Assembly (NCBI GenBank): GCA_023229365.1
Contig: JALNZK010000003.1
Coordinates: forward strand, 10,339-74,338
Length of the DNA: 64,000 nucleotides
From: Pseudomonadota bacterium
GTDB lineage: Bacteria; Myxococcota_A; Polyangia; JAAYKL01
Direction: 5' to 3'
A program made the translations under genes and the position numbers. The notes under the pieces are model-generated. The model saw nothing but the letters and a program-made list of their open reading frames with translations. It was not told the origin of the DNA and ran no database searches. Positions 1,741 to 19,973 of this stretch are shown piece by piece. The first letter of the stretch is position 1; each line of letters opens with the position of its first letter.

Positions 1741-2127
1741 TTATTTCCATAGTCCCAATCTCCCCGTAATTTTATCGATATTCTCGTTTAAATCAGGTCC
1801 GATTCCTATGCAGGTAAGAGTGTTGGGGTCCAGTTCTGTCAGGCCGAAATCATAAACCGTATAGAACGGAAGATTGTGTTCCGCACACTTTCCTTCGAGC
1901 GCTATAATTTCTTTCGCCGATGGGACCCTAAGAACTATCTTTCGAAATCCTTCGGCAAACCAATTTTCCAGCGTTGCTTTTGCTCGATATACTCCAGATC
2001 CGTTACATATCACTCCCACGCTCGCGTGAGCTACCTGAACCGCCAGTTTCCCCGGCGACATTTTAAGATCTTCTCGGACAACTATTACTTGCTTATAAAG
2101 GAATTTAGTAGTCATAATATTTGTCAT
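1741..2127 (-). CDS. pth2: peptidyl-tRNA hydrolase, archaeal/eukaryotic Pth2 type
   Basis: KQVIVVREDLKMSPGKLAVQVAHASV ... FRKIVLRV ... GLTELDPNTLTCIGIGP aligns by eye along its whole length with Pth2 proteins. Confidence 0.85.
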   Translation of the reverse strand: MTNIMTTKFLYKQVIVVREDLKMSPGKLAVQVAHASVGVICNGSGVYRAKATLENWFAEGFRKIVLRVPSAKEIIALEGKCAEHNLPFYTVYDFGLTELDPNTLTCIGIGPDLNENIDKITGRLGLWK

Positions 2128-2692: not shown

Positions 2693-3132
2693 TTCCTTAA
2701 CCTCTCTATATCATCTAGAATAATGTTCGTGATTTCTTTTACTACCACTTCAAGTTCAGCAAGACCTTTCATATGACTCATTAAATCTTGAATCTTTTCT
2801 GGCGGAGTTTTTCTACAGTCTGGACATAGATAAAAGTATCCAGCTCTATAATCGTCCGACGCGGGATAATCATAACACGAGTAAGAGTCTCCACTATATC
2901 CGGCATCACCTACTTCAAACTCATATTCCTCAAAGATTTTATTTTTCTGAAGGCAAAAATTGCAAGCATGTTTTCCACACCCCAGACATGAGGGCATTCT
3001 GTCTCCCGATCCTCTGGCGCAAAAATCACAGTCCCAGACAATTCTAGGGACATCTATAGTAATTACTTCGTTCACCGCTGGCACGACGGTTCTTACTTCT
3101 TTTTTTCTCTCGATAATGGTTTTTTGAGTCAT
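2689..3132 (-). CDS. Cys-rich (multi zinc-ribbon) protein (147 aa)
   Basis: CDFC..CLGCGKHACNFC..CPDC pattern; 4-nt overlaps on both sides. Confidence 0.5.
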   Translation of the reverse strand: MTQKTIIERKKEVRTVVPAVNEVITIDVPRIVWDCDFCARGSGDRMPSCLGCGKHACNFCLQKNKIFEEYEFEVGDAGYSGDSYSCYDYPASDDYRAGYFYLCPDCRKTPPEKIQDLMSHMKGLAELEVVVKEITNIILDDIERLRK

Positions 3133-3626
3133 AATCCGTCTCCGTACATTGGAGTATCTAATCTTCTCTTTACGTTTTCTTTTATCTCATCCCTTACCTG
3201 CACCAAAAGTTTTCCTAGCATATTCTGACTTCCGGGAAGCGCTCCGCCCCAGAACATATCAGTTGGCGAATCCTCAATAAGAATTGCATCTCCAGTCCAT
3301 AGTAACAAGTATCTCAGGGTATTATTGTAGTGGAACTTCTTTCTCAATCCTTCCAACATAACCTCCGTTTTCTTTGTCTCCCACTTTTGAACCATTTCTT
3401 CGGGTCTCAAATTTCTGCCCGCGGTCATGGCGGCGTAAGCGGTTGGTGCTCTTCGTATCCATTCTTTCATCGCGTAACTTTTTGCTTTTTGAGATTGATA
3501 ATAATGTTCGTTCGTTTGATAAGTATCCGGTTTGGTTCCATATCCAAAATCTATTGGTTCTCTCCAAAAATTAGACAGGAATCCATAAGGCTCCTCTCTT
3601 AAATAAAATCTTATTTCTTCGGACAT
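3129..3626 (-). CDS. NADAR (YbiA/DUF1768) family protein
   Basis: YGFLSNFW ... NEHYYQSQKA ... GRNLR ... W...K..VMLEGLRKKF ... TGDAILIEDSPTDMFWG matches the YbiA/NADAR pattern. Confidence 0.8.
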   Translation of the reverse strand: MSEEIRFYLREEPYGFLSNFWREPIDFGYGTKPDTYQTNEHYYQSQKAKSYAMKEWIRRAPTAYAAMTAGRNLRPEEMVQKWETKKTEVMLEGLRKKFHYNNTLRYLLLWTGDAILIEDSPTDMFWGGALPGSQNMLGKLLVQVRDEIKENVKRRLDTPMYGDGL

Positions 3627-3627
3627 T

Positions 3628-3816
3628 TTACTTTTCTCTCCTTAAAATATCATCTAAATGTGTAACGGCCATTTCTACGGCCTTTCCCGGATTATGTCCC
3701 ATATTCATATATCTAGATTGCTCGGATTGGATATATGCATCTATCAGTATGTGGTACTTTGGAACGGTCATTTCCTGTTTAATTTGTTCTATTCTTTTAT
3801 ATAAGTTTTCGGACAT
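3628..3816 (-). CDS. hypothetical protein (62 aa)
   Basis: ORF track; dominant strand; 1-nt gap to upstream gene. Confidence 0.45.
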   Translation of the reverse strand: MSENLYKRIEQIKQEMTVPKYHILIDAYIQSEQSRYMNMGHNPGKAVEMAVTHLDDILRREK

Positions 3817-3856
3817 ATCACTTTCCCCTCTTTATGCCTCGTAATATACATATTAG

Positions 3857-4897
3857 CTAATTATGGTGCGCGGAAAGGGGAATTGTGCGAGTTCCCCGCC
3901 AAGTTACTTTTGTTAATATATTTAGGTCTTCTGACTTCGCAATTTTAGTAATCCGTTTTCCTGTTCTAACACTGTGTAGGGAAATTCTACCCTTATAACT
4001 TCCACCAATATAGGTTAATTTCCACTTAGGATGCCGAACCAAGGTTCCTCTGCTAAATCCCATTGATCGCGTCCCGCCTTGGGGTCTTCTAGTCCCTCCT
4101 TTTGTGAATTGAAACATATGTAATTGTCTTCTATTTAACACTATAGGTGTCCAATAGTTTAAATCTTTTGTGGTAGGTTGGCCTGCTCCGCAGATACTAG
4201 CAGCCATAACCCAAGCATCCACTGCATGAGATTCGAACACCTTCCTGGATTTAACGGAAGTTTTCTTCAGTCGGTACGTATCGCGGAGCATCTTAGTGTC
4301 GTAACCTCTAAATAATTCTAGCTTCAGCCGCATATCCCGAATTGTTTGGTAGAACCACGCTTTTCCCACTTCTAAAGGCGAGAAATTCACATTGAACTTT
4401 CGAGCCCCTTTCCTGGTCTTAGCCGCTATATCTTCCACGCAAACATCTGTGATAGGTAACACCCTCTTTATCTGTTTTAGTATTCGTACCTTGGAATTCC
4501 ATCTAGCTAGGGTCGAAGGCGGCAACCACTTTTTATTTCTATTTCGGTTAAATCTGGCGGGTCTTCTCCAACAGTTTCTATGCCTCCTAGATTTTCGTAG
4601 ATTACGGCGTCTCTCGACCGCGCCCTTAACGTGAATGGGCTCTTCCTGCATACCATTGAGTACCGTCTTATGTTGCCCTACCACGCTCCACCCGGTCCAC
4701 TTTGATCCAGGGTCAATACCAACTACTAACTTCTGGTTATCGGGTACGACCTCTTTGTGTAATATAATACAGAATATTCCTAATTTATTCCAGTAGGCGG
4801 ATGCCTTTCCGTTATCGAGCAGTTTCCTCGCGTGTGCCGGTGATGTAGGCATTAACGGAACCATTCTTGAATCTAATACGGGTATTTGTTGCGACAT
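3857..4897 (-). CDS. isrB: IsrB (HNH-less IscB-like, RuvC-only OMEGA nuclease/nickase)
   Basis: PLMP motif (RMVPLMPTSPAHARKLL); RuvC-I VVGIDPGSKWTGW; Arg-rich bridge helix RRRNLRKSRRHRNCWRRPARFNRNRNKKWLPPS; RuvC-II DVCVEDIA; RuvC-III ESHAVDAW. There is no HNH insert. Length is 346 aa. Confidence 0.85.
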   Translation of the reverse strand: MSQQIPVLDSRMVPLMPTSPAHARKLLDNGKASAYWNKLGIFCIILHKEVVPDNQKLVVGIDPGSKWTGWSVVGQHKTVLNGMQEEPIHVKGAVERRRNLRKSRRHRNCWRRPARFNRNRNKKWLPPSTLARWNSKVRILKQIKRVLPITDVCVEDIAAKTRKGARKFNVNFSPLEVGKAWFYQTIRDMRLKLELFRGYDTKMLRDTYRLKKTSVKSRKVFESHAVDAWVMAASICGAGQPTTKDLNYWTPIVLNRRQLHMFQFTKGGTRRPQGGTRSMGFSRGTLVRHPKWKLTYIGGSYKGRISLHSVRTGKRITKIAKSEDLNILTKVTWRGTRTIPLSAHHN

Positions 4898-5125
4898 ATT
4901 ATGTCTCCTACGGGTTAAACCCGCGTAACATTTCCCTTCGAGATTGCAGAAAAAGCTTAGCCGGATAACGGCGTCCTATTTGGCAAATAGAGAGGTGGTC
5001 CGCATTAGGGAAGCGTGCGGTACGTTCTTGTAGCTTCTGGTGCTGCTGCATGTTCTAATGCCCTCTAGTCAATACTTGCGACGTGTTAGCCATTAACACG
5101 TACCTAGTTTACCTAGATTATCAAC
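4898..5125 (-). ncRNA. candidate IsrB omega-RNA (guide plus scaffold)
   Basis: ORF-free, visibly GC-richer gap immediately 5' of isrB. Perfect 8-bp hairpin at 5071-5091, with further helices at 4900-4917, 4950-4963, 4966-4980 and 4990-5010. Promoter-like box at 5144-5157. The 5' boundary is a guess. Confidence 0.55.
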
Positions 5126-5143
5126 TCAACAATTGCTTGCAAA

Positions 5144-5157
5144 CAATATATTTATTC
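5144..5157 (-). promoter_or_regulatory. TATA/-10-like box GAATAAATATATTG upstream of omega-RNA/isrB
   Basis: Variant of the recurrent TAAATA(G/T)TA intergenic motif; overlaps the stop codon of the polymerase gene. Confidence 0.4.
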
Positions 5158-8100
5158 TCCATTCCAAAACGTACCCTTTGCGGTCGCATTCCACTTTCCT
5201 CTAATAATCGATCCATACATAGGCAACAATCCTCCGCGGCTCATCATGGCTCCGTAGGTTATCTGACCTACATTATCCACGCATTCTATTGAGGAGAATG
5301 CGTTTCCAGCCTTGCTGGTCCCATAACTTATATTTGTTATCAAGAACTCTTTGGCCCCTAGTGTATCGAATCCACCTTCCAATCCTCTCAGTACATTCTT
5401 AGACATTTCATCTTCTACATTACCCATCCATAGTATTTGTAACTTTCCCTCTCTAACTTCTATATGGCCTCTGTTCATGTAATAGGGATTTAAACAAAAC
5501 ACCAAGGGATTCTTTTGTTCTCCCTTAACTATCGTGTCCACAATCTCTTTATGTCTCCTCGCAACTACCGCAGACAAATTTAATGTAACTCTCGACGTGC
5601 CGTCCTCAAAATTCAAAACATACGAAGTGTTCCCATTACTACTAAACGCCTTATGATCATAAACCCATCCAACAGACAATATTGCTTTGTTTTCTACGGA
5701 CTCAGACTTTAAGTAGTTTAAAGGCTTCCTATGTAAATCATATTGAGTTTTTGGCAGTTCATCATACGATCTAGGCCAGGGCAAGGACTTTCTGAGCCTA
5801 AACATCTTTTCCTCCTCAGACCAGTCGTCGCTTGTATTCGGTTCTGTAGACCACCTCCACAGCGTATTCCTAGTGAGTTCCTTTCCCCCTAATAATTGTT
5901 TGCGATTCTTCTCTACTGAATCTAAATAACCGACCTCTACGAGCGTTTGGTAAACATTCTTTTTAATTTTCTTTATCTTATCAAAGTCATCTCCAGCCGC
6001 CAAGACCTTTTTGATTTCTTCAGGTCCGATTCCTTTGACTTTGTTTAATCCTAAGTAAATAATATTTTTGTCTTTATTGAACGTAGTTAATTCTGATGGA
6101 GATTCTACGCTTGGAGGTTTGATTTCTACTCCAGAATCCATCGCTTCTTTTACAAAGGATAAAGACTGAGTTTCATCGGATTCTACGTTAATTAGAGAGG
6201 CATAGAAAGCTAGGGGATAATATAATTTTAACCATGCTGTCCAGTATCCTAGCATAGAATATTCAATAGAATGTGCTTCGTTGAAACTATAGCGTCCAAA
6301 TTCAAGAATTTTGTTGAATAAATTATCAAATTGTGGTTTTGTGAAGCCATTTGATAACGCGCCCCGGAGCATTTTATCTTCACTTTCTTTAAGCGCTTCT
6401 CGACCCTTTGACTTTGCCACCAGCTTCATTTCCCGCTCACTTTCCACCAAAGAGAAATTTCCAATTTGATGGTAGATTTGCATAATCTGTTCTTGATAAC
6501 AAATAATTCCATAGGTGTCCTTCGTGATCGACTCAAGTGTTGGATGATCGTAGTTCCACTCTTTTCCTCCCTTTCGATCTACATAATCAAATGACATCCC
6601 AGAGTTAAGAGGTCCTGGACGACACAAAGCATTCACGGCTACTAAGTCATTAAACTTGTCGGGATTTAGCTTCCTCAAATAGTCTGTCACTAATTGAGAA
6701 CCAAATTGGAATATTCCAGCGGTTTTACTTGACTTAAGAAGTTCAAATATTTTAGGATCAGCATAATCCTCTGGTAAAACATCCCATTCTAATCCAGAGG
6801 ATTTTAACGCTCCGTCGATGACATCTAGGACGGAGATTCCTAGGACATCGAACTTGATTATACCCAAACTTTCCAACATATCCTTTTCAAAACTTGCGGC
6901 GAGGCAATTTTTGATATCTCCTTTGTCATATATTTCTGTTGGGATAGTGCTTTCTAGATCCTTACAAATTACTACTCCTGCGGCATGAAGTCCTACGTGT
7001 CTAATTTTGCCTTTGAGTTTTATAGATGCATCTATTACTTGGGGGTACTTTTTCGCGAACTCTGCGGCGGTTTCTGAAGTAAGAATTATATCTTCGATTT
7101 TAAGGTTCTCTGCGGTCTTAGTGGAGAGTTCTTTGTTGAATTTATTTACCTCGGAAAGGGGAACGTCATAAATTCTGGCTACATCCTTAATTGCGGATTT
7201 ATCAGACCACTCGTTAAACGTCATAATATAGGACACGTTGGTTGGTCCATATTTGAGCCTGAGACTTCCAATTATACTTCCCCTTTTCTCGGCGCTGAAA
7301 TCCATATCAATATCAGGAGTCCGTGTAGGTGAAAGGAATCTCTCCCATAAAGTATTAAATCTTAGTGGATCGACTCGTGTAATTTTTAATAAATATGCAA
7401 GTAGAGAACCGCCAACCGATCCTCTTCCTGGACCCCTTGGAATATTATGGGAATCTGCGTAGTCTGTCATATGCATAACTTTATCAAAATAATTAAAAAA
7501 TTTTCTAGATGTAAGGAGATCTATTTCTTTTGTTATTCTTTCGTTTACTATTTGTGGATCATATCCGTTCTTTTTGGTATAACCTTCAACATCTATTCTA
7601 TCTAAAATCTTTTGTCGGGCTTTCTCTTCATTTCCAGGCAAAGTATCCCCTAGATTTGACGGTAATTCAAAAGTGCATTTGCTAGCTACCTCTAAAGTAT
7701 TAGCAAATAACTCTTCTCTTATGGGGTATATTTTTGGGTGATTCGATTTCAACAAGGACTCTATTTGGTCGCAAGTTAAATTACAAAATGTGTCATCAGA
7801 GAACCCAATTTTATCTGTAATCTTTTTTCTCCATTCGTTCGCTTTTACGAGATCGTGATAATGTTTATCCTCTGGAGAGTTGTAGTGGGAGTCGGTAGTG
7901 ATTATTGGTTTAATATTATACTTTCTTGCTATATTAATTATATATTCATTAAATCTTATTTGTTCCTCCATTCGATTCGGCATTAGTTCCATATAAAGAT
8001 CTTCTCCGAACGCCGCTTGAAGTTTTTGTATTATAGGCTCAGGATCATCTCCTCTTTTCCATCTTTGGGCTACCGTTCCACTAATACATGCGGTGCTACA

Positions 8101-9138
8101 AATTAAACCTTCTGAATGCTTACAAACTTCGTCTAGAGGAATCTTTTGGAATACTTTATTGAAAACTTTATGGACATGTTCTTTTGCAATCGTATGTAAT
8201 TTTAGTAGATTCTTATATCCAATCTCGTTTTTAACAAGAAGAACGAGATGACTTTGTTTTTTCTCAGATTCCTCTATATAGGCTTCTAGTCCAATAATGG
8301 GTTTAATTCCTTTTTTCTTCAGGGCATTTTGAAAGTAAGGGAGACCGGAAAGAGATCCGTGATCTGTTATGGCACACGCTTTGAAGCCTTTCTGCGACAA
8401 ATCTTCTGCTAATTCATCTTCTGTACGGAAAACATCTCCCACAGATCCGTGTTCAGTGTGTACGTGCAAAGGCGCATATCTTTGCATTCCCAACGGAAAA
8501 GGTTTGGTTGACTGAGGTCCATTCGGAATTGGAGATCTCAGAGGACTTGGAAGGGGATCGGTTATTGATTGTTCTGCTGGAGCTTCAATACGTGTCGATC
8601 CATCTTCAAGAAAAAAGTTTACACGCTCGAAGGATTTCACGTAATCCTCAATTTTTACAGCTCCGCGCAGGCAGTAAGACGGATGATATAATCCGACAAA
8701 CCTTCTGCCGCTATCGTCTTTTAGGGTTTGTCCAATCGCTTCCGAGATTTTTTTGGCAGGGAAGAAGAAGTTTAGAGCGGTAGCTCCGAGGCACACGATG
8801 AGTTCTGGATTTAGCAATTCTAACTGTTGCTCCAGCCAGGGCTTGCACGCGGCGATCTCTTCTGACGTTGGTTTTCTGTTTTCTGGCGGGCGGCATTTTA
8901 AAATATTGAGAATGCAAAAATCTTTAATCCCATTTTCCGATATGCAGCGATCCAGTAACATTCCAGAGCGGCCCACAAATGGCTTCCCTGCGGCGTCTTC
9001 GGCCTCACCCGGAGCTTCCCCCAAAATTACTATTTTCGGAGTCTGCGAACCGCGTCCGACGACAACGTTTTTTCTTGATTCGCAGAGTCCACATTTTTTA
9101 CACGATTTGATTTCTTGAGATAGAATTTTTAGATCCAA
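5152..9138 (-). CDS. dnaE: family-4 uracil-DNA glycosylase fused to DNA polymerase III alpha (PHP + DnaE core)
   Basis: N-terminus: CKKCGL ... GEAPGEAEDAAGKPFVGRSG ... LYHPSY (UDG family 4). Then PHP HVHTEHGSVGD. A roughly 1100-aa DnaE-like body follows (GRGSVGGSLLAYLL, DIDMDF, HAAGVVI, GIIKFDVLG). Confidence 0.85.
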   Translation of the reverse strand: MDLKILSQEIKSCKKCGLCESRKNVVVGRGSQTPKIVILGEAPGEAEDAAGKPFVGRSGMLLDRCISENGIKDFCILNILKCRPPENRKPTSEEIAACKPWLEQQLELLNPELIVCLGATALNFFFPAKKISEAIGQTLKDDSGRRFVGLYHPSYCLRGAVKIEDYVKSFERVNFFLEDGSTRIEAPAEQSITDPLPSPLRSPIPNGPQSTKPFPLGMQRYAPLHVHTEHGSVGDVFRTEDELAEDLSQKGFKACAITDHGSLSGLPYFQNALKKKGIKPIIGLEAYIEESEKKQSHLVLLVKNEIGYKNLLKLHTIAKEHVHKVFNKVFQKIPLDEVCKHSEGLICSTACISGTVAQRWKRGDDPEPIIQKLQAAFGEDLYMELMPNRMEEQIRFNEYIINIARKYNIKPIITTDSHYNSPEDKHYHDLVKANEWRKKITDKIGFSDDTFCNLTCDQIESLLKSNHPKIYPIREELFANTLEVASKCTFELPSNLGDTLPGNEEKARQKILDRIDVEGYTKKNGYDPQIVNERITKEIDLLTSRKFFNYFDKVMHMTDYADSHNIPRGPGRGSVGGSLLAYLLKITRVDPLRFNTLWERFLSPTRTPDIDMDFSAEKRGSIIGSLRLKYGPTNVSYIMTFNEWSDKSAIKDVARIYDVPLSEVNKFNKELSTKTAENLKIEDIILTSETAAEFAKKYPQVIDASIKLKGKIRHVGLHAAGVVICKDLESTIPTEIYDKGDIKNCLAASFEKDMLESLGIIKFDVLGISVLDVIDGALKSSGLEWDVLPEDYADPKIFELLKSSKTAGIFQFGSQLVTDYLRKLNPDKFNDLVAVNALCRPGPLNSGMSFDYVDRKGGKEWNYDHPTLESITKDTYGIICYQEQIMQIYHQIGNFSLVESEREMKLVAKSKGREALKESEDKMLRGALSNGFTKPQFDNLFNKILEFGRYSFNEAHSIEYSMLGYWTAWLKLYYPLAFYASLINVESDETQSLSFVKEAMDSGVEIKPPSVESPSELTTFNKDKNIIYLGLNKVKGIGPEEIKKVLAAGDDFDKIKKIKKNVYQTLVEVGYLDSVEKNRKQLLGGKELTRNTLWRWSTEPNTSDDWSEEEKMFRLRKSLPWPRSYDELPKTQYDLHRKPLNYLKSESVENKAILSVGWVYDHKAFSSNGNTSYVLNFEDGTSRVTLNLSAVVARRHKEIVDTIVKGEQKNPLVFCLNPYYMNRGHIEVREGKLQILWMGNVEDEMSKNVLRGLEGGFDTLGAKEFLITNISYGTSKAGNAFSSIECVDNVGQITYGAMMSRGGLLPMYGSIIRGKWNATAKGTFWNGE

Positions 9139-9151: not shown

Positions 9152-9937
9152 CTAAATAATTTTTCCTTCGCTTTCACTAAATCGGTTGCAATTATCGTTA
9201 AAACATTCTAGAGAATATGTTTCTTTTAATTCTTTGGGCCACCCCATTTTATTCCATTTGGATAATAATTTGGTTGAATCCGTTTCCCCATTGCGCCTCA
9301 TTTCAGCCCCATTATGTCCTATATGTCCAACACAAAGATGTATTAAACTTTGATCGCCACAGACTCTACAAGGACCAAAGAATTCATAGGCCGCTTTCCA
9401 AAGTTTTATTTGGCGTTTTTGAGACAAAGATATCTCCGACTTTGATAAATTAAAATACCCGCGCCGCTTCACTCCGCAATTGCAATTGTAATCCAAAACC
9501 CGCAATCTCCTTCTAATTTCGGTTTCTTCGGGCCAAACCGTTTTATTCCAATATTGAATCATCCCGTAAACGTAGTTTTCCCCATAAACTTCTCTGTCGT
9601 GTTTAGAGTCATTGTTTATGTGGTCGAAGGTTAAATACTTTTTGTTTGATTCTCCGCACATAACACATTCATAACCCAATATATCGAATAGCTTATTTCT
9701 TAGCTTTTCGTTGTATTTTCTTTGATACTCAATTATTGATTTATGATTTTGGGATCTATATTCTTCTTCTTTTCCCCTGGTCTTGTCATAGTTTATCCAT
9801 CGATTTATTGTCCCAACAGCGCAATTGCATTCTATCGCTATTTGTCTCTGGCTTTTTCCTAGTCGCATTTGTTTGTCCAACCAATCTTTATTTTTATATG
9901 GTTTTGCTCCGCTAAGTAACAAATAAAGTCCTCCCAA
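9152..9937 (-). CDS. free-standing HNH-type endonuclease with N-terminal HTH
   Basis: HTH-like KSQRQIAIECNCAVGTINRWI. Cys/His modules CVMCG...LTFDHINND and CRVCG...VGHIGHNG. Sits between the polymerase and methyltransferase genes. Confidence 0.55.
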   Translation of the reverse strand: MGGLYLLLSGAKPYKNKDWLDKQMRLGKSQRQIAIECNCAVGTINRWINYDKTRGKEEEYRSQNHKSIIEYQRKYNEKLRNKLFDILGYECVMCGESNKKYLTFDHINNDSKHDREVYGENYVYGMIQYWNKTVWPEETEIRRRLRVLDYNCNCGVKRRGYFNLSKSEISLSQKRQIKLWKAAYEFFGPCRVCGDQSLIHLCVGHIGHNGAEMRRNGETDSTKLLSKWNKMGWPKELKETYSLECFNDNCNRFSESEGKII

Positions 9938-9952: not shown

Positions 9953-11962
9953 TTAAATAGAATTAATCCGTTCTTCCGCCATTTTACAATAATCTGCGTT
10001 CAGATCTATCCCCACGAAATCCCGGCCCAACTTCTTGGAAACCACGCCTACAGTCCCACTTCCCATAAATGGATCTAATATCAAGCAAGGTTCAGGATCT
10101 CCCCAGGCGCAGTCCAGAATACATGAGCAGGTCTGTTGCCATCCTACGGTTTTAGATTCTGCGGGAGATAGCATAGTTCCACTAGCTTGAGTCCTTCCAA
10201 ATTCTCCCATTTGCGCCATTCTATCTGTCTTTCGAATAACCATTGGTTTCTTAAGAAGAATTCTCTTGTATGGAGCATTACATGCGGGACAGCAACCTTT
10301 TTCGGAAGTGGACGATTTGATAGGATTTAGAAGTAATTCTTCACAAAATGTCGCAAAATGCGCCGACTTAAAGGGCTTCGTTACAAGGGTCCAAACCGAA
10401 CGGAGGTTGCGCTTACTGGTACAATATTGACTGAGACGCCCACGAGACGTTTGTCCATTTGGCGTATTTTCTCTTGCAGAGCCAGATAGTTTGCCCGTCG
10501 TGTAATTCCCTGATTTTCCCGGTCTAGTGTCTTCTGGATTTTTGCGTCCTTCCTTCACCGCCTCTCCATCATAAAAATACTTCTTACTTTTCGTGAACAT
10601 AAACAAGTATTCATGACTTTTTGATGGGCGATCAACTACCGACTCAGGCATTGAATTCCCCACATATAATCCCAGGTTCTCAATGAGTGCTTCTATTTTA
10701 TTTTGATCAATTCCAATTTCTATGCCAGCATTATAGATCTGAGAAGTCAGTTCTTTTTGTCCACTCACTCCCTTGGCCCAGATAATGTCTGACCGGAGCC
10801 ACCAGCCGTCGTCTCTAAGAGCGAAAGCTACGAGCCAGGGAATTCCGATGAGATCTTTGGGTTTAATAGATATATTTATATAGTTTGTGGTATTATATGG
10901 CTGAATATATGGAAGGTTCAACCATGACGAAACAAGCGAATAGTATCTGGAAATGCATCGAATGTGGTCGCACAGTTCCTCGAAGGACGAAAAGGTGTCC
11001 CGAGTGTCACAAGGCGTTTCTAAAGATCCGACCGACTTACGTTCGAACTCCCGAGCACAAACGGCTAATGAGCGAAGTAACGACAGGAAAACCAAAAGCG
11101 TATCCTTCGGCTTCAACTCGCCCAGAAGTGGCGGAACGTATTCGTTTGGCTTGGACTCCTGAAATGAAAGAATCTGCTCGATTGCGGGGATTAGCGTTTG
11201 CGCTCGATCCAAACTGGCGTTTAATGATTGCCGAATCTGTTTCCGGAGAGAAAAATCCTCGATGGGAAGATGGTCGGGCAGTTTTACCTTATTCACCAGG
11301 TTTTGCTGGCAAAGTAAGGCAACTTGTTCATGAGCGAGACGGAGAGTGTTGTCAGAAATGTGGTTCCACCAAAAATTTATGCGTTCACCACATGGACTTT
11401 CAGAAAAATGATCACGATCTGGGAAACTTGGTTCTCCTCTGTCGGAAGTGTCACACGGGAACGCATTTAGAGCATAAGAACGGTCATGTTTAGACCTCCC
11501 GTTTGTTCTGTTAACTCCGCCCGTGTTTTTATGATTGCTATACCCCGCGCCGCAATAAGAATCTCCTAAATTTAAAAATAGGATTCCGTCGTCTCTCAGA
11601 GTCCTTTTTACCTCTCTAAATACTTCTACGAGATTAGTCACGTATTCGTCTGGCGTAGCCTCTAATCCGAGTTGAAAATCCTCATATGTGGCTCCACACT
11701 TAGAACATGTTGGGGATGGGAACTCGGACGGATAACTATTTGTTGTGTTTTTAGCATTGGGTCCAGATCCACCTCTCCCGTTCCTCGCTGGAATTGTATC
11801 GTGAACGCAATCTTGCGATCCTCCGATCCATTTTCCGGTATTGTACGATCTTAAGCCAAAAAATGGCGGACTCGTTATGCAACATTGAAACACTTTGTCT
11901 GGAAAAGTCTTTAAAACGTCCAAAGAATTGCCACAATAAATTTTATTTCGCTCCATACTCAT
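9953..11962 (-). CDS. beta-class N4/N6 DNA methyltransferase carrying a ~209-codon in-frame insertion
   Basis: Motif IV ITSPPFFG, FLNLGDSY, KPKDLIGIPWLVAFALRDDGWWLRSDIIWAK, MPESVVDRPSKSHEYLF, motif I ILDPFMGSGTVG. The loop between GDSY and KPKD is expanded by the antisense HNH cassette. Confidence 0.8.
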   Translation of the reverse strand: MSMERNKIYCGNSLDVLKTFPDKVFQCCITSPPFFGLRSYNTGKWIGGSQDCVHDTIPARNGRGGSGPNAKNTTNSYPSEFPSPTCSKCGATYEDFQLGLEATPDEYVTNLVEVFREVKRTLRDDGILFLNLGDSYCGAGYSNHKNTGGVNRTNGRSKHDRSYALNAFPCDTSDRGEPSFPDRDHFSESPCGERINFWWNHISDNTLRLAHEQVALLCQQNLVNKVKLPDHLPIEDFSLRKQIRQSLNASLDRAQTLIPAIEQILSFQESKPNEYVPPLLGELKPKDTLLVFLSLLRSLAVCAREFERKSVGSLETPCDTRDTFSSFEELCDHIRCISRYYSLVSSWLNLPYIQPYNTTNYINISIKPKDLIGIPWLVAFALRDDGWWLRSDIIWAKGVSGQKELTSQIYNAGIEIGIDQNKIEALIENLGLYVGNSMPESVVDRPSKSHEYLFMFTKSKKYFYDGEAVKEGRKNPEDTRPGKSGNYTTGKLSGSARENTPNGQTSRGRLSQYCTSKRNLRSVWTLVTKPFKSAHFATFCEELLLNPIKSSTSEKGCCPACNAPYKRILLKKPMVIRKTDRMAQMGEFGRTQASGTMLSPAESKTVGWQQTCSCILDCAWGDPEPCLILDPFMGSGTVGVVSKKLGRDFVGIDLNADYCKMAEERINSI
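10868..11494 (+). mobile_element. HNH endonuclease cassette (own promoter, SD and ORF) inserted in the variable loop of the methyltransferase gene
   Basis: Boundaries inferred from where the MTase translation leaves (..GGVNRTNGRS) and re-enters (IKPKDLIGIPW) family-typical sequence. TTTATATAGTTT box at 10875-10886. Confidence 0.5.
10924..11493 (+). CDS. HNH homing-type endonuclease, antisense inside the methyltransferase ORF
   Basis: Zinc ribbon CIECG..CPEC and HNH core CQKCGS...CVHHMD...NLVLLCRKCHTGTH. SD GGAAGG precedes ATG 10924. The ORF track start at 10885 is less likely. Confidence 0.8.
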   Translation: MTKQANSIWKCIECGRTVPRRTKRCPECHKAFLKIRPTYVRTPEHKRLMSEVTTGKPKAYPSASTRPEVAERIRLAWTPEMKESARLRGLAFALDPNWRLMIAESVSGEKNPRWEDGRAVLPYSPGFAGKVRQLVHERDGECCQKCGSTKNLCVHHMDFQKNDHDLGNLVLLCRKCHTGTHLEHKNGHV

Positions 11963-12420
11963 CTCTTCTCCAAATTTAGCCTTTTAGCTTTATGATATAC
12001 AGAATGGTCCTTTCTCCCTAGATGTTCCCCTATCTCTCCCGCTGTCATTGTGAGATAATTATTTTTCAAATAATCTATATCTTCAGGAGACCAACTAGAG
12101 TTTCTTTTTCTCCGAAGTCCTAAACTACTTGCCTTTAGTATTATTCCTTCCTTTTTCCTCCCCAGCACAAAACTCATTTCTTCCCAAGAGGTCGTAGCGT
12201 AACTTCTTTTAAGATATTCTATATCTTCCGAACTAAAATGTTTTAAATACTCTAAATTAGTTCCATTCAGTCCCAATTCATCAATTCTTTTTTCAATTTG
12301 AGATTCCGATCGGCCCCAGAGTTTATTTTGAATAGAGTTTCTTTTAACTCCTCTAACAGGGATCTTTCCATAAAATTCTTTTAAGATATCGTCTTCTTCT
12401 GTCGTAAACTTGTCGGGTAT
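11959..12420 (-). CDS. three-repeat Myb/SANT-like DNA-binding protein (start codon uncertain, probably AUA)
   Basis: Three ~45-aa repeats: FTTEEDDILKEFY.., FSSEDIEYLKRSY.., WSPEDIDYLKNNY... The ORF track starts at TTG 12276 inside repeat 1. The frame is open up to 12453 with no ATG, GTG or TTG. SD AGGAGAG lies 8 nt before ATA 12420. Confidence 0.55.
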   Translation of the reverse strand: MPDKFTTEEDDILKEFYGKIPVRGVKRNSIQNKLWGRSESQIEKRIDELGLNGTNLEYLKHFSSEDIEYLKRSYATTSWEEMSFVLGRKKEGIILKASSLGLRRKRNSSWSPEDIDYLKNNYLTMTAGEIGEHLGRKDHSVYHKAKRLNLEKR

Positions 12421-12595
12421 AAAAATCTCTCCTAATATTCGGTCTTTCAGACCTCATCTACCATATCTAGTCGTCAGAATCCTTTCTAGGGCCACCGCAA
12501 TTCTTACTAATGAATCACAATTCTCCCTCATCATGCAACTTTCTTTTTTCGGAATATAGGCCATACATTTTCCCAGAATACATTCATCGTTTATT

Positions 12596-13087
12596 TTAGG
12601 ACAAAACACCAAGAAATTCAGCCTCCTCTTTTGTTAAATCGATCTGTTGATCAAGAAGTGATTTTGATTTATTTGCTAGTTCTATTCCATGTTTACATTC
12701 CTTAATAAACCTTTCGACCGCTCTAATAGGAGAAATGTATGTGGGATGATCCCAAGGGAAGCGAACAAAGAATTTATCGGCCTCATATTTATAATATATA
12801 CAAAGGTAAGGATCTTTTATTTCGGTTTTCCATAACCGAATATTTATTCCGCTTTGCTTCAGGAGTTTTAAAACTTTCAGCGCCTTTCCCGCGTTTAAAA
12901 TATCGTTGTTTATATTTTGAATTATACATAGATGATTTCTTGGAAGAATCTCGCTGTAATTTTCTTCTATCTTAAACTCAAGGGTATCCAATATTTCTAT
13001 AGATTTTTGGATCAACTCTCGTCGAGGAATGGTCTTTTCAATATCTGTAAACGGAGGAGTTTTCTTAAAAAGAGAGAATAGGAACAT
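12596..13087 (-). CDS. hypothetical protein (163 aa)
   Basis: ORF track; dominant strand; abuts the next gene. Confidence 0.5.
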   Translation of the reverse strand: MFLFSLFKKTPPFTDIEKTIPRRELIQKSIEILDTLEFKIEENYSEILPRNHLCIIQNINNDILNAGKALKVLKLLKQSGINIRLWKTEIKDPYLCIYYKYEADKFFVRFPWDHPTYISPIRAVERFIKECKHGIELANKSKSLLDQQIDLTKEEAEFLGVLS

Positions 13088-13477
13088 TTATATTTCCTCC
13101 AATCTTTCCATGTAATATTTCTCTTCTTCCGGAGGAACAAATTCGTTATTTAAAAACGGACTAATCAGATCAGACAGTTCCTCTCTTGTTAGCGCATGTA
13201 CAATTATGTTCCTTTTTTCGCACCCATTTGCCGTACAAGTAGTTCTGGATTTTCCTCCAATGTACCATTGCAACCCACTACATTTCGGACACTTTATAAG
13301 TCTCGGACGATTACCCAGAGGCTCGATCTCGATGGGTGTCACGGTAGATTTACACTTAGAACACGCTGTCTTTTCACTACCTTGATACCAAGTCCTCCAA
13401 AACCAAGGTTCTTGACATTTGGGGCATTGTACGGATTTTGGCATCGGGAGCAAAATAGGATTATTAGGAATAAACAT
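13088..13477 (-). CDS. multi zinc-ribbon protein (129 aa)
   Basis: CPKC..CSKC..CPKC..C..GC Cys pairs. Confidence 0.5.
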   Translation of the reverse strand: MFIPNNPILLPMPKSVQCPKCQEPWFWRTWYQGSEKTACSKCKSTVTPIEIEPLGNRPRLIKCPKCSGLQWYIGGKSRTTCTANGCEKRNIIVHALTREELSDLISPFLNNEFVPPEEEKYYMERLEEI

Positions 13478-13591
13478 TTAAATCTCCTATCCCAGGCGGG
13501 CCGTTACGTCTCGAACAAAACCATTCCACCACGAATTCCAAGGAACCATCAGAAGCCTTCTGAGAGTTCCAATTTGAGAATGAGAAAGCAT

Positions 13592-13834
13592 CTACTCCCC
13601 TATCCCCGCATAAACATTCAATTCCTGAGCAATTGCCTTCCGCGCCTTATTAACGTCTCTCTTTCCTCCGCCGACAAGCTCGAGGTAACCTTCAATAGCG
13701 ACGATCTTCTGAGCAATATCCTTATCGGATTCAGAAGCGGTCATTTCCTGTGCTTTATCATACAACGCCTGAGAAGTATTTCTCAACTTCTCGGCACATG
13801 CCTTAATTTCATCGATAAATTGTTGGTCTAACAT
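13592..13834 (-). CDS. hypothetical protein (80 aa)
   Basis: ORF track; dominant strand. Confidence 0.45.
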   Translation of the reverse strand: MLDQQFIDEIKACAEKLRNTSQALYDKAQEMTASESDKDIAQKIVAIEGYLELVGGGKRDVNKARKAIAQELNVYAGIGE

Positions 13835-14031
13835 GTTTTATTCTCCGTTATCTGTATTAATTTAAGGTAAATTTGGTCGAGTTCTATGATTATAGCAAGT
13901 ACGCCGAAAAATATCATATATTTAATGTTCCCTATATAACATTCAACCGCGAATAACAAAAACGTCAAAAGGGATATCCAAGAAATAATCGGTATCAAAT
14001 ACTTGTTAATATTCGTCTTATCAATTAGCAT
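13828..14031 (-). CDS. small membrane protein (67 aa, two hydrophobic helices)
   Basis: LIPIISWISLLTFLLFAV and MIFFGVLAIII hydrophobic stretches. Confidence 0.5.
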   Translation of the reverse strand: MLIDKTNINKYLIPIISWISLLTFLLFAVECYIGNIKYMIFFGVLAIIIELDQIYLKLIQITENKTC

Positions 14032-14036
14032 TTTTT

Positions 14037-14240
14037 TTATTCTCCCTCAAATCCCATAAATTTTCTCCAACCCTCTGGACCGAAAAACTCTTCATCATCT
14101 AACGAATTCAGGGATTGAATAATTAGCTTAAGATACTTTTTTACCGCAAATTCGGTCATGTCGTCTACGATAGAAACAGATAACATAAAGACTCCTAAAA
14201 ATAAGACCTCGGATTCTGAAACGAATCCTACGGTTACCAC
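14037..14240 (-). CDS. hypothetical protein (67 aa)
   Basis: ORF track; dominant strand; 7-nt overlap with upstream gene. Confidence 0.45.
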   Translation of the reverse strand: MVTVGFVSESEVLFLGVFMLSVSIVDDMTEFAVKKYLKLIIQSLNSLDDEEFFGPEGWRKFMGFEGE

Positions 14241-15511
14241 GCATCCGCAGTGTTTTCCGCTGCGGTAGGCTCTTCATTAATCTTTATCGGCTCGCTAGGC
14301 ATCCCAGAAGAGATATCCTTTATGGCGTACACCCTAATTCCGGGAGTATCTCTTTCCTTGTTTATAAACACCTTTCCGATTACCTGTACGATTCCAGCGA
14401 GGTTTCCTTTTGGACCTGTTACAGAGTCAAATATAGCCGCATCTCCGATAATATTAATGGAATTAGCACTCATATCTGAAATCGTAGTGTATCCGATCTT
14501 AGTTCCCTTCTCTGGATTCTGCTTAACTTCTACAATTGCGTCCCCAAACATTGGCTGCAATTTCACAAACTTACCTGCGAAATTACGAACTCCATTTAGA
14601 TCCGCCAGGATCTCGCACGCCATACTGTCATCTATTGTGATCTTCTCATTGGAAGTGTTTGGCTTACTATTAAGGTTCCAGTATGGCCCGTTTTCTCTAA
14701 GAACTCCCTTGTACGTGGCCCCAAAATCCACCTTATGGGCCATCCACTCATCGAATATTGTAGAAACAGTCCGAACCTCGGTAGTTCCGTTTGAGTTTAA
14801 AACGAGAATCTCCATCGAACGAGACATAAGAGGCTCTGCGGAGATCTGACCATCCCTAGTCTTCTTGTAGAGAGGCTCTTTTACGATCTTTCCATCTTCT
14901 CCCTTTGTAACCTGTCCATCTGCGTCCTTTACGTTTCTCATTACGGGTTTGGGCTCATATGCTACTAGGATTTTAAATGGAGATCCCTGAGCGATTGCGG
15001 GAACCGTAAAAGTCCTTTCGGTTGTACCGATATCATTGATCCCATAGTTTGTATACCCATCCCTAATAGACTTATTAAGCTTACCTCTATAAAATCCCGG
15101 CCTAAAAGACTTGTTGTTCCAATGGGTAACCCGAATCCTTACACATCCTTCGGTCTGCGCCTCGCTGTGGAACATATCGGTATTGTTTCCAACTGGCACA
15201 ATAATATATAGATTGGAAAACGCCTTGTTATTCTTGGTGAGCTTGGCATCGTCCTGTTGCTCCAAGTAGAACAAAACCTCTGTATCTCCCTTGGAAGCCG
15301 CCTTCTCACAAGAAATAACCTGATTAATAGCCATCTCTTCTACAGAAAGAACTTTTGCAACTCCTCCAACATTCAGATTAAAGGGCTTTGTACCCGCGTC
15401 CTTTAAAACCTTAAATTTTGCCGCATACTTATCCTTAAACGTATCTATAGCGAGTCCTGTAGCTTCAACGCCCTTGTTTAGGGCGGCTTCTATATTAAAT
15501 TTCTCTGTCAT
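14234..15511 (-). CDS. 425-aa protein with acidic C-terminal tail; possible ssDNA-binding protein (speculative)
   Basis: Strong SD (GAGGAG, 9 nt before ATG) and its own promoter box. C-terminus is INEEPTAAENTADAW, acidic with a terminal aromatic residue as in many phage SSBs. No fold recognised by eye. Confidence 0.6.
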   Translation of the reverse strand: MTEKFNIEAALNKGVEATGLAIDTFKDKYAAKFKVLKDAGTKPFNLNVGGVAKVLSVEEMAINQVISCEKAASKGDTEVLFYLEQQDDAKLTKNNKAFSNLYIIVPVGNNTDMFHSEAQTEGCVRIRVTHWNNKSFRPGFYRGKLNKSIRDGYTNYGINDIGTTERTFTVPAIAQGSPFKILVAYEPKPVMRNVKDADGQVTKGEDGKIVKEPLYKKTRDGQISAEPLMSRSMEILVLNSNGTTEVRTVSTIFDEWMAHKVDFGATYKGVLRENGPYWNLNSKPNTSNEKITIDDSMACEILADLNGVRNFAGKFVKLQPMFGDAIVEVKQNPEKGTKIGYTTISDMSANSINIIGDAAIFDSVTGPKGNLAGIVQVIGKVFINKERDTPGIRVYAIKDISSGMPSEPIKINEEPTAAENTADAW

Positions 15512-15554
15512 GAATTTATGCTCCTCTTGTTTGATACCATTACAATGGATTGCT

Positions 15555-15567
15555 AGAATAAATAGTT
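15555..15567 (-). promoter_or_regulatory. promoter box AACTATTTATTCT (exact 13-mer, copy 1 of 3)
   Basis: 43 nt upstream of ATG 15511. Identical 13-mers occur at 16532-16544 and 54508-54520. Confidence 0.5.
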
Positions 15568-15570
15568 TCT

Positions 15571-15641
15571 GGTAGGCGTTTCAGCCTACCATCATAGCAC
15601 GCCGTCTTTCAGGCGTGCGTACCGAGTGACTCCGCAGAGTC
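15571..15641. other. three consecutive GC-rich hairpins in the leader/intergenic region
   Basis: GGTAGGC-GTTTCA-GCCTACC (15571-15590); GCACGCC-GTCTTTCA-GGCGTGC (15597-15618); GACTC-CGCA-GAGTC (15628-15641). The first two have perfect 7-bp stems and near-identical loops. Confidence 0.6.
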
Positions 15642-15647
15642 CGAGGT

Positions 15648-15659
15648 GATATTTATACC
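15648..15659 (-). promoter_or_regulatory. TATA/-10-like box GGTATAAATATC
   Basis: Matches the recurrent TATAAATA motif. It would launch a minus-strand transcript through the three hairpins. Confidence 0.4.
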
Positions 15660-15801
15660 GTCTCCAACAACAAATTAGCCGCAAACATCGAAAAAGATGC
15701 AGCTATTATCCTTTCCGTATACGAGTTTTCCCTATTAATTGAAATATCTAATCCAACATAAATTACAATAATAAATATAAATCTAACCACGAATTTCTCT
15801 A

Positions 15802-16500
15802 TCATAACCACCTCTCCAATCCAAGATTCCACACCTCTTCATGGTCTCCTAAATACTGACCAATTTTCTTTTCCTTTCTAACATATTTCGCCATGAAATC
15901 AAGCTTTCCTTCCCTTTCGACTCTATAAACACAACCCTCAGCGAGTTCCAGCGCTCCATGATGACCAAACTCACCAAGTAAAATGTCCGCCTCTTGAGTA
16001 GTTATCGGACCTCCCTCATGGAGAACATAAGGTCTGGGGAAGAAGGACGGGACAATCGAATTAAAAACATCTAATGTTTTAGCTCCGCCAGGACCTAATA
16101 GATCAAACGCTACGAAAGGTTCATGTTGTAATTCATATTTTGTTCCATGAGCCTGCGCCATCCACTCTCCACATAATCTTTGATTATTTTCTAAGAATTC
16201 AAATTCGTCCTGATTCTTATAGAACCAGTCAGAAAACAATCTATGCTGCTTAAATTTAGACGTATTTGCTTGCCAGCCTTTTCGTGTTACTGGTGTTAAT
16301 ATTCCATCAATTCGTGCGCCAGCACAGCTCGATCCGTCGCATTTCTCCTGTAGAATTATTTTGTCCTTCTTGTCGCGCAGTTTACGAGTACAAATTCTGT
16401 CCATTCCCTCATTTACAAAGAAATCTCCTTTCTCAGCGTGAGATCCTAGTAGGTGAGGAATTCGGTGATAGGCTTTTCTGCCTAGTGCTTTTGTGAGAAT
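15802..16500 (-). CDS. RNA ligase family nucleotidyltransferase (Rnl2/DRB0094-like), probable AUU start
   Basis: KxDG motif QEKCDGSS, CGEWM, FVAFDLL, EGCVYRV, FMAKYVRKE. The family-typical YHRIPHLLGS lies upstream of the first ATG (16404). The frame is open to 16506. SD AGGTGATC lies 4 nt before ATT 16500. Confidence 0.7.
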   Translation of the reverse strand: MLTKALGRKAYHRIPHLLGSHAEKGDFFVNEGMDRICTRKLRDKKDKIILQEKCDGSSCAGARIDGILTPVTRKGWQANTSKFKQHRLFSDWFYKNQDEFEFLENNQRLCGEWMAQAHGTKYELQHEPFVAFDLLGPGGAKTLDVFNSIVPSFFPRPYVLHEGGPITTQEADILLGEFGHHGALELAEGCVYRVEREGKLDFMAKYVRKEKKIGQYLGDHEEVWNLGLERWL

Positions 16501-16531
16501 TTGGGATCACCTATGTAAAAAGAGCGGTATT

Positions 16532-16544
16532 AGAATAAATAGTT
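16532..16544 (-). promoter_or_regulatory. promoter box AACTATTTATTCT (exact 13-mer, copy 2 of 3)
   Basis: 31 nt upstream of the proposed AUU start of the RNA ligase gene. Confidence 0.5.
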
Positions 16545-16558
16545 ATCGGAAAGTATGC

Positions 16559-16590
16559 AAAAAAAGACCTTGGTCTTTGGCGAGGCCAAG
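16559..16590 (-). terminator. hairpin(s) followed by a U7 run; candidate intrinsic terminator
   Basis: Minus strand reads CTTGGCCTCGCCAAAGACCAAGGTCTTTTTTT, with alternative 5-bp stems TTGGC/GCCAA or CTTGG/CCAAG. Confidence 0.4.
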
Positions 16591-16775
16591 AAGCCACTAA
16601 GAAATTGATATATATAACAATCATCCTCGCTAAATAGGGAGAGATGTCCCAAGGGCGCGAATTATAGGCCCGCGAGGAGACATAAACGGACCGCCGTAGG
16701 TTTCATTTTTTCAGAAACAGAGGCACGGAGGGAAGAATGGAGACGAATTTCCCTTGGGACGTTTTGAATTATTGT
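16591..16775 (-). ncRNA. candidate ~200-nt structured small RNA (strand assignment tentative)
   Basis: ORF-free, GC-richer stretch between a TATAAATA box (16782-16793) and the U7 terminator. Perfect 10-bp long-range helix GTCCCAAGGG (16649-16658) / CCCTTGGGAC (16752-16761) encloses about 93 nt with inner helices. Confidence 0.35.
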
Positions 16776-16781
16776 TCTAAT

Positions 16782-16793
16782 GGTATTTATAGA
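16782..16793 (-). promoter_or_regulatory. TATA/-10-like box TCTATAAATACC
   Basis: Recurrent motif, directly after the stop of gene 16800..17183. Confidence 0.45.
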
Positions 16794-16799
16794 TTACGG

Positions 16800-17714: not shown

Positions 17715-17715
17715 T

Positions 17716-19088: not shown

Positions 19089-19149
19089 AATTCGAACCGA
19101 TTATTTCTAGATCTGGAATCTGGCGCATCTGCCTTGTCCCCAAAAATTT

Positions 19150-19902: not shown

Positions 19903-19962
19903 TTAAAACTCACATCCATATTACATCCGCTTGGGATGAGGATATCTTAAATATGAGATCGA

Positions 19963-19973
19963 TACTATTTATA
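19963..19973 (-). promoter_or_regulatory. TATAAATAGTA promoter box
   Basis: Intergenic, 60 nt upstream of ATG 19902. Confidence 0.5.

Follow-up and report, generated by a model that had tools for sequence, protein, structure and literature searches.

Between positions 3852 and 5125 of the window, by which we mean the whole 64,000-nucleotide (nt) stretch of contig JALNZK010000003.1 that was analysed, lies what appears to be a complete ISC1-type, non-autonomous element of the IS200/IS605 family of insertion sequences (IS), encoding an IsrB protein and its omega-RNA and inserted just 3' of the polymerase gene of a virus that probably infects methanogens. We put the probability of this reading at about 80%. 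An earlier note, made from the letters of the window alone, had proposed a virus-borne IsrB with a candidate omega-RNA in the gap upstream of the gene, the two being fixed into the viral programme under a viral promoter. The protein and the RNA stand; the fixed module does not, and the element looks instead like a sporadic selfish insertion.

3852-5125, minus strand: whole ISC1-type (IsrB) non-autonomous IS200/IS605-family element, about 1.27 kb, its 3' edge uncertain by a few nt.
3857-4897, minus strand: isrB gene, 346 amino acids (aa), with PLMP domain, RuvC-I (D62), arginine-rich bridge helix, RuvC-II (E155), short HNH-less linker, RuvC-III (H224, D227) and a beta-rich domain that would interact with the target-adjacent motif (TAM).
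4904-4908, minus strand: Shine-Dalgarno-like AGGAG, read from the sequence, 6 nt 5' of the isrB ATG and right behind the last hairpin of the RNA (SL7).

The open reading frame (ORF) carries every motif that had been quoted for it and can be identified, by sequence, catalytic residues and predicted fold, as a full-length IsrB. Pfam RRXRR (PF14239) matches it at E=2.4e-40, and its best solved relative by sequence is IsrB of Desulfovirgula thermocuniculi (DtIsrB, PDB 8dmb; phmmer E=2.7e-37, residues 4-291 aligned), followed by IscB chains at E values of 1e-13 to 3e-6. DtIsrB aligns without a break, IscB structures only with large insertions. In keeping with the absence of an HNH insert, no Pfam HNH match was found in the ORF and only 68 residues separate E155 from H224. 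The VPLMPTSP motif at residues 13-20 aligns to the PLMP strand of DtIsrB, and the RuvC residues align to its DPG, TED and ETHANDA motifs. D62, E155, H224 and D227 are invariant across 37 homologues that are 54-74% identical to the window protein. The DtIsrB residue that reads the TAM, R323, lies beyond the phmmer-aligned stretch, which ends at residue 291; R334 is invariant in the 37 homologues. A nuclease-dead, TldR-like regulator was considered and dropped, all RuvC residues being intact. The gene most probably starts at 4897 and not at the internal methionine of the gene caller's 335-aa version, because homologues begin M[RQ][VI]PVLD; an alignment of the upstream regions of relatives keeps GGAG or GGAGG at the position of the AGGAG.

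The AlphaFold2 model has a mean pLDDT (predicted local distance difference test score) of 80.5, with the last 16 residues below 50. It shows the PLMP region as beta strands and a helix (pLDDT 86-96) and places C-terminal beta strands at residues 286-329, in line with the beta-rich tail claimed from the sequence. The top Foldseek match of the model in the PDB is 8dmb_P (E=6e-26, template modelling (TM) scores 0.63/0.66, 337 columns); IscBs come next, then RuvC resolvases.

The 254-nt gap upstream of isrB, 4898-5151, holds no same-strand ORF, as had been said, and the evidence that it encodes a genuine omega-RNA is comparative. Homologue-encoding loci were collected from viral contigs and genomes and the 400 nt upstream of each gene were aligned. 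Among 16 loci, conservation sets in sharply with GTCAAC (position 5125 in the window, which reads GTTGAT) and extends for about 230 nt as far as the ATG, and the 20 nt 5' of it are unrelated from locus to locus. RNAalifold predicted 46 pairs from the 16 sequences, 33 of them with compensatory changes. To this fold we added two helices (S1 and SL2) and two pseudoknots, giving a structure of 66 pairs, laid out below.

4908-5125, minus strand: omega-RNA scaffold, 218 nt, defined by a covariance model built from relatives only, by covariation and by the topology of the DtIsrB RNA.
5120-5125 with 5068-5073, minus strand: helix S1.
5102-5118, minus strand: hairpin SL1.
5081-5101, minus strand: hairpin SL2, the 8-bp hairpin placed earlier at 5071-5091.
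5062-5065 with 4940-4943, minus strand: helix S2.
5032-5043 with 4946-4957, minus strand: helix S3.
4992-5027, minus strand: helix and hairpin S4/SL4; the SL4 part, 4998-5023, had been placed at 4990-5010.
4975-4991, minus strand: hairpin SL5, placed earlier at 4966-4980.
4960-4972, minus strand: hairpin SL6.
4910-4924, minus strand: hairpin SL7, placed earlier at 4900-4917.
5012-5007 (UUCCCU, SL4 loop) with 4937-4932 (AGGGAA, 3' of S2), minus strand: nexus pseudoknot, 93.8% paired.
5092-5089 (UGGC, SL2 loop) with 4984-4981 (GCCA, SL5 loop), minus strand: adaptor pseudoknot, supported by covariation.

S1 encloses SL1 and SL2, S2 encloses a variable stretch and S3, and S3 encloses S4 with SL4, SL5 and SL6; the 3' strand of the nexus pseudoknot follows, and SL7 comes last. 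In this structure 92.8% of the alignment cells form a standard pair, a value that falls to 51% or less when the 3' partners are slid by 1-3 columns, and 38 of the 66 pairs have changed on both sides in a compensatory way. The observed covariation was reached by none of 500 shuffles on four of five measures and by one of 500 on the fifth. One pair of the adaptor pseudoknot covaries (CG in 10 sequences, UA in 5), and the nexus pairing survives C-to-U and G-to-A changes in two loci (L008 and L009). Once small alignment shifts in SL1, SL2 and SL6 were mended, all helices and both pseudoknots are paired in the window. The RNA of L115, the nearest relative (75% aa identity), is similarly rich in AT, and where it differs, in SL2, SL5 and SL7, the changes are compensated. 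A covariance model built from 14 relatives with the window left out (model R1, from alignment A3) matches the window over its full length, from 5125 to 4908, at 132.1 bits and E=3.4e-40, and nowhere else in the 64 kb.

Some details of the gap as first described need amending. All four local helices exist, their positions having been given about 10 nt too low. A 7-nt long-range complement also exists, at 5098-5104 with 5019-5025, but it competes with conserved helices and falls outside the conserved fold. The gap is GC-richer than the mean of the window (0.445 vs 0.394), yet this reaches only the 87.5th percentile of 254-nt windows. No standalone omega-RNA was found, either with nhmmer or with R1, in the window or in relatives that lack IsrB. 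At another locus, L001, two heavily truncated matches to the omega-RNA model stand beside the real one (3526-3603, minus strand; 7739-7807, plus strand; about 20 bits, E about 1e-4), the first of which also scores 23 bits with the HEARO model; they could be remnants, miniature derivatives or chance.

What bounds the element? Its 5' end coincides with the onset of conservation among the 16 loci and with the start of the covariance-model match, and it is set independently by two IMG/VR contigs that carry one element in two contexts. These contigs (L003, 5775-7071, and L004, 5775-7071) share an identical element, with a 100% identical protein and the same omega-RNA, between unrelated flanks whose GC content is 0.44 in one and 0.32 in the other; the common sequence starts with GTCAAC and ends with ATGA. 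The pair points to a recent movement between viral genomes. The 3' end comes from L115, which reads ...GCTAA|ATGAA where the window reads ...GCTAAT|ATGTA, and from the distance between hairpin and end in relatives. In another relative, L002, the next viral gene begins with this ATGA (ATGAAAGAATATGA...), and because the window has the same gene start without an element there, the ATGA is flanking target lying outside the element. The 3' flank is ATGAA in nine relatives and ATGAT in one, the boundary in these ten having been placed mostly by position. Nine of the ten start with GTCAAC; in the remaining one, L115, the contig boundary truncates the 5' end.

3847-3851, minus strand: flank at the target site or TAM position, ATGTA in the window where relatives read ATGAA.
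3877-3897, minus strand: subterminal hairpin at the isrB-distal end, GGGGAA-N9-TTCCCC and then TTTCCG, read from the sequence; a candidate TnpA-binding hairpin.

At the same isrB-distal place relatives, too, form a hairpin, with T(T/C)TCC behind it. The window copy thus has subterminal hairpins at both ends, at 5102-5118 (SL1) and 3877-3897, which are unlike each other; the two end hairpins of relatives are alike, for example CCCACGAC-TAAA-GTCGTGGG and CCCATGAC-TAAA-GTCATGGG in L003. The lack of a TnpA gene, part of the earlier description, holds beside IsrB, and none was seen beside a TnpB gene elsewhere in the window, in a view that covers 64 kb of a 145-kb contig and did not scan small ORFs systematically. 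Only about 1.5% of iscB genes have tnpA nearby (Meers et al., bioRxiv 10.1101/2023.03.14.532601).

The distribution of the element speaks to its nature. The viral clade of the window consists of contigs of 129-145 kb with a polymerase in which UDG is fused to PolIII-alpha, and they share synteny. None of the nine relatives of the virus that were compared has an IsrB gene behind its polymerase gene; they include the following.

L020, from the same IMG sample: polymerase 86% identical in its C-terminal part; an 81-aa ORF and then NADAR follow; no IsrB.
L112: polymerase 82% identical; a 57-aa ORF and then NADAR follow; no IsrB.
L113 and L114: polymerase 76% identical; no IsrB after it.
L021 to L024: polymerase 71-76% identical; no IsrB after it.

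DNA homology to L020 reaches as far as the polymerase stop codon, breaks off, and is found again from the NADAR gene on. Other members carry IsrB elsewhere: L002, which is 80-95% identical in aa sequence to window 11962-21167 in the better-conserved stretches, has an IsrB 64% identical to that of the window at another site, and in L110 (49% polymerase identity) a further IsrB, accompanied by an omega-RNA of its own, stands about 4 kb upstream of the polymerase gene. IsrB lineages of at least three kinds thus occupy three or more sites in one viral family, most of whose members have none after the polymerase. Because the nine relatives lack IsrB there and other copies sit at other sites, the window element is best read as a sporadic selfish insertion and not as a fixed part of a viral programme.

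The guide of such an element would come from its flank. By analogy with DtIsrB, for which a 20-nt guide is described (PMC9581776), the window guide would run from 5145 to 5126. In an all-against-all search of 17 guides the sole meaningful match was that of the L002 guide to the window; the L110 guide, searched separately, gave none.

5126-5145, minus strand: putative guide TGTTTGCAAGCAATTGTTGA, outside the element and 6 nt past the polymerase stop codon (5152-5154); the non-conserved stretch that abuts the scaffold in all loci.
18150-18173, minus strand: uninterrupted L002 target site, AACAGATCTGGCCTCAGAAT+ATGA (ATGA at 18153-18150), inside the metallophosphatase ORF 17716-18408.

The 33 nt before the L002 scaffold match window 18186-18154 at 28 of 33 positions, and within them the guide matches at 17 of 20 bases, the 15 TAM-proximal ones being identical. 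The window reads ...CAGAAT|ATGAT across the site; in L002, the 5' flank ...CAGAAT abuts the scaffold and ATGAA abuts the 3' end of the element. ORF 17716-18408 of the window is an intact metallophosphatase gene (Pfam Metallophos, E=3.6e-12). In L002 this gene is gone except for a 33-nt remnant that holds the guide-encoding stretch, and the IsrB element is in its place. By this comparison the window carries the uninterrupted allele of the L002 insertion site. A guide that matches the empty allele is expected of any such element, and the match is evidence of an insertion polymorphism, not of homing. For the window's own insertion no clean empty site was found in L020, L112, L113 and others, because homology ends at the polymerase stop and resumes inside a small gene, orf62, which is placed elsewhere in relatives.

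What might such an element do? We infer a selfish IS that is maintained because its guide directs nicks to empty sites. Transcription would come by read-through from the co-oriented polymerase gene or start just upstream, and IscB elements are indeed preferentially co-oriented with the upstream gene, which fits read-through as the supplier of the guide (Meers et al., bioRxiv 10.1101/2023.03.14.532601). The first 20 nt or so of the resulting RNA (5145 to 5126) would be the flank-derived guide, and the 218 nt behind it would form the scaffold for IsrB. An IsrB loaded with its omega-RNA nicks the non-target strand beside an NTGA TAM (PMC9581776); the window pair would do the same to guide-matching DNA next to an NTGA-type TAM. 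Such a target would be present only where the element is missing, at the joint left after excision or at the same locus of a co-infecting relative. A nick that becomes a break during replication could then be repaired from the copy that bears the element, which would persist or spread through homing. The window copy, with ATGTA at the TAM position, may have lost the ability to excise from its site or to restore itself there. When TnpA has excised an element, TnpB and IscB cut the joint that remains and so bring the element back (PMC13565253; Meers et al., bioRxiv 10.1101/2023.03.14.532601), and empty alleles on co-resident plasmids or phages have been put forward as targets of homing, a proposal that awaits validation (PMC13565253). 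More tentatively, and with the odds somewhat against it, the IsrB elements of the UDG-PolIII-alpha viruses could be viewed as RNA-guided homing or gene-drive elements that pass between co-infecting genomes, probably of methanogen viruses, by a nick alone. This idea draws on the presence of at least three IsrB lineages at three sites and on the window holding the L002 protospacer with its ATGA TAM.

Several results count against the interpretation given so far. The fold of the gap is unremarkable for a single sequence (-67.3 kcal/mol vs -66.6 +/- 4.9 for shuffles, z = -0.14), and its structure is significant only through comparison with relatives. The Rfam HEARO model (RF02033) does not match the window RNA at E<=10, either in 2.1 kb (3500-5600) or in the 271 nt of 4880-5150 alone, and no Rfam family matches the whole window at gathering thresholds. 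The fit to an omega-RNA covariance model thus failed with the standard model and succeeded with R1. Five of six scanned relatives match HEARO positions 1-211 (E values of 1.6e-10 to 7.5e-9); their 56-63 bits fall short of the gathering score of 83, and each of these matches starts exactly at the GTCAAC of the scaffold. Since relatives match HEARO, R1 matches the window and the L115 RNA differs from it by compensated changes, the miss is most plausibly a problem of sensitivity. The window copy is also off consensus, by three bases at its terminus (GTTGAT) and by one in its flank (ATGTA), and its flanks are rearranged relative to relatives, as the placement of orf62 illustrates, so that the insertion event is not cleanly reconstructable. 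In the window, orf62 (3628-3816, minus strand) separates IsrB from NADAR, and in L020 and L112 it is found several genes downstream, past the homologue of orf147; this local rearrangement goes together with the IsrB insertion. The guide search was likewise negative. The exact 16-nt guide has 48 matches in IMG/VR, none longer than 16 nt save the virus itself; the 16-nt guide followed by NTG has 28 in metagenome contigs, none of which extends or belongs to a related virus; and the 20-nt guide with up to four mismatches finds, in all fetched loci, only itself and one chance match. The 16-mer matches look like chance, and no target beyond them came from related viruses, IMG/VR or metagenomes. Lastly, IsrB would make nicks only, and nick-driven homing is so far hypothetical. 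A 13-nt guide match in orf128 of L020 had no TAM and was set aside as chance.

The off-consensus ends raise the thought that the window holds a stranded, decaying copy, left by one insertion, incapable of excision or homing, devoid of present activity and on its way to becoming a pseudogene. Decay does occur in this IsrB family, the reading frame of one copy (L010) being broken at 152 aa, and a shortened SL1, the blindness of the HEARO model to this RNA and the lack of a TnpA nearby could be taken in the same sense as the ATGTA flank and the GTTGAT terminus. Against decay stand the full-length ORF with all its invariant residues, the pairing of every helix and both pseudoknots, and stem differences from L115 that are compensatory and point to purifying selection on RNA and protein since the two diverged. 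Even the change of the S1 stem from GTCAAC to GTTGAT is compensated, through G-U and A-U pairs. Because the catalytic residues are intact and the stems compensated, these features argue that the protein and the RNA of the window copy are still under selection, and we consider a dead copy quite unlikely.

The opposite alternative is that the virus has domesticated the system as a tool, a fixed and promoter-driven module whose guide is selected against a competitor virus or the host. The intact gene and RNA, the position of isrB directly after the polymerase gene and co-oriented with it, and an AT-rich box upstream are what one would look for, and the ATGTA flank and diverged terminus suggest a loss of transposition, which is how domestication would look. 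The box is there, at 5157-5144 (GAATAAATATATTG), as the earlier note had it, but its standing as a viral promoter is not borne out by statistics. A sigma-70 scan gave no site 5' of the RNA on the minus strand and four sites in total, where 4.1 are expected by chance, and TATA-like words are common throughout the AT-rich window, in counts not above chance. Should the box be an archaeal TATA element about 26 nt before the start, transcription would by our estimate begin at about 5122-5125, leaving no guide. The same promoter and terminator scan found no terminator-like site between the polymerase and the element. The absence of IsrB at this site in the nine relatives and the other IsrB lineages at other sites of the family also speak against domestication, as does a guide that is simply the adjacent flank, as in every transposon copy, and for which no target beyond chance 16-mers was found. 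We hold this alternative to be very improbable, and retain the reading of a mobile, selfish element.

The neighbours of the element are those first proposed. The polymerase gene (5152-9138, minus strand) encodes a 1328-aa fusion of UDG with a DnaE-type PolIII-alpha, isrB follows it directly in the same orientation, and a NADAR gene lies beyond. The contig is most likely viral, as had been supposed. The window sequence is also an IMG/VR viral contig (an uncultivated virus genome, UViG; L005/L025/L049), and so are five related polymerase-bearing contigs; many window proteins match PHROG families, with a PHROG-type replication module; and the best match of the polymerase among deposited phages is Methanobacterium virus PhiF1, at 34% identity. 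An archaeal host, a methanogen, is suggested by this polymerase match, by a PTH2-type peptidyl-tRNA hydrolase at 1741-2127 (minus strand, E=9e-35) and by IsrB relatives in Methanoculleus, Methanocalculus and Methanoregula genomes. A blastn search of 3000-6500 against deposited phages gave no match, and no tRNA genes were found in the window. A paper on landfill viromes (PMC12607003) cites IMG sample 3300014204. Could the contig be a plasmid, another extrachromosomal element or a misbinned cellular fragment? The window has only replication, nucleotide-metabolism and methylase genes, with no structural or packaging gene among about 36 larger ORFs scanned, which would suit such an origin. That scan, however, covered 64 of 145 kb, and the IMG/VR status of the window and of the five related polymerase contigs, the PHROG matches, the kinship of the polymerase to that of PhiF1 and the synteny of the related 129-145 kb contigs all favour a virus, so that a non-viral origin seems improbable.

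IsrB, omega-RNA and ISC1 transposons have been described before, and the kind of system is known. DtIsrB (PDB 8DMB; Hirano et al. 2022, PMC9581776) has the same domain order as the window protein (PLMP, split RuvC, bridge helix, no HNH, TAM-interacting domain) and nearly the same size (353 aa vs 346), with about 29% identity in structural alignment. Its published omega-RNA structure has the same order of helices, and both RNAs have the "group B" pseudoknots, the adaptor between SL2 and SL5 and the nexus between SL4 and the S2-SL7 linker (PMC9581776). The flanking ATGA of the window family fits the NTGA TAM of DtIsrB. There are differences too: the window scaffold is shorter (218 nt vs 262), SL1 being short, SL3 not clearly present and SL8 missing; N265 of DtIsrB, the phosphate lock, appears as glutamine by our reading of the sequence alignment; and the window system is AT-rich, from a landfill-type metagenome and on a virus, whereas DtIsrB comes from a thermophile.

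At the level of the transposon, the likeness is to ISC1. In ISC1-1_MA of Microcystis aeruginosa the 5' terminus reads GTCA and the target is N|ATGA (Kapitonov et al. 2016, PMC4810608). ISC1 and the window family are both short elements that encode only an HNH-less Cas9 homologue, have subterminal hairpins and no transposase of their own, and insert at N|ATGA without target duplication (PMC4810608). Unlike ISC1, the window copy starts with GTTGAT, is flanked by ATGTA and resides in a viral genome of a probable archaeal host. GstIscB has the TAM TTCAT, which as its reverse complement reads ATGAA (Meers et al., bioRxiv 10.1101/2023.03.14.532601). In HEARO and GstIscB systems, as at the window locus, an RNA bounded by the transposon end precedes the ORF, the element has the orientation of the gene upstream of it, and tnpA is rarely near. 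Unlike IscB, the window IsrB lacks HNH and should therefore nick one strand only. Nor is an IsrB-type gene on a virus without precedent, since nine deposited phage records hold full-length RRXRR/IsrB-like homologues (88-96% coverage, 31-46% identity). They include uncultured huge phage LR745208, Bacillus phage AgentSmith and the Microcystis phages Ma-LMM01 and MaMV-DC; the named hosts are all bacterial, and the records label these genes only as RRXRR-domain or hypothetical.

Other genes of mobile character lie around the replication genes. A second nuclease of OMEGA type (for obligate mobile element-guided activity) is encoded at 60992-62149 (plus strand), a 385-aa TnpB with Pfam HTH_OrfB_IS605, OrfB_IS605 and Cas12f1-like_TNB domains (PHROG 506, E=6e-110) and no adjacent TnpA-like ORF. 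A 202-aa HNH endonuclease ORF at 10885-11493 (plus strand; Pfam HNH, E=5.8e-5) lies antisense within a 669-aa N6/N4 methylase ORF (9953-11962, minus strand). Residues 1-145 and 358-669 of the methylase align to the 485-aa methylase of L112, and residues of about 146-357 form an insertion that coincides with the HNH ORF, the frame staying open throughout. Between the methylase and the polymerase, at 9152-9937 (minus strand), lies a 261-aa ORF with two CxxC...H motifs, HNH-like by eye and with no Pfam support. In L112 the methylase directly abuts the polymerase, and homologues of the 261-aa ORF are found elsewhere in L021, L112 and L113. This ORF is likely, judging from its placement, to be a free-standing mobile endonuclease gene, in which case the polymerase gene would be flanked by selfish elements on both sides. 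In L113 an ORF resembling DUF559/MTES_1575 endonucleases (5682-6011) overlaps the polymerase start, and a polymerase homologue, P0134, contains LAGLIDADG and intein-splicing domains.

The locus adds to the known systems a compact, AT-rich IsrB with a 346-aa protein and a 218-nt scaffold that the standard HEARO model misses, and surveys that rely on HEARO will therefore under-count such RNAs. Its natural insertion sites, taken with those of its relatives, support a single motif, ATGA, as both transposon target and nuclease TAM in an IsrB family. Should homing between co-infecting viruses prove real, it would supply a natural example of "transposon non-restorative homing", which a 2026 OMEGA review lists as still to be validated, and a nickase would suffice for it. 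The viral family described here, with several IsrB lineages, a TnpB and HNH genes clustered round its replication genes, offers a filled and an empty allele of one insertion site, a pair that makes RNA-guided homing from virus to virus directly testable.

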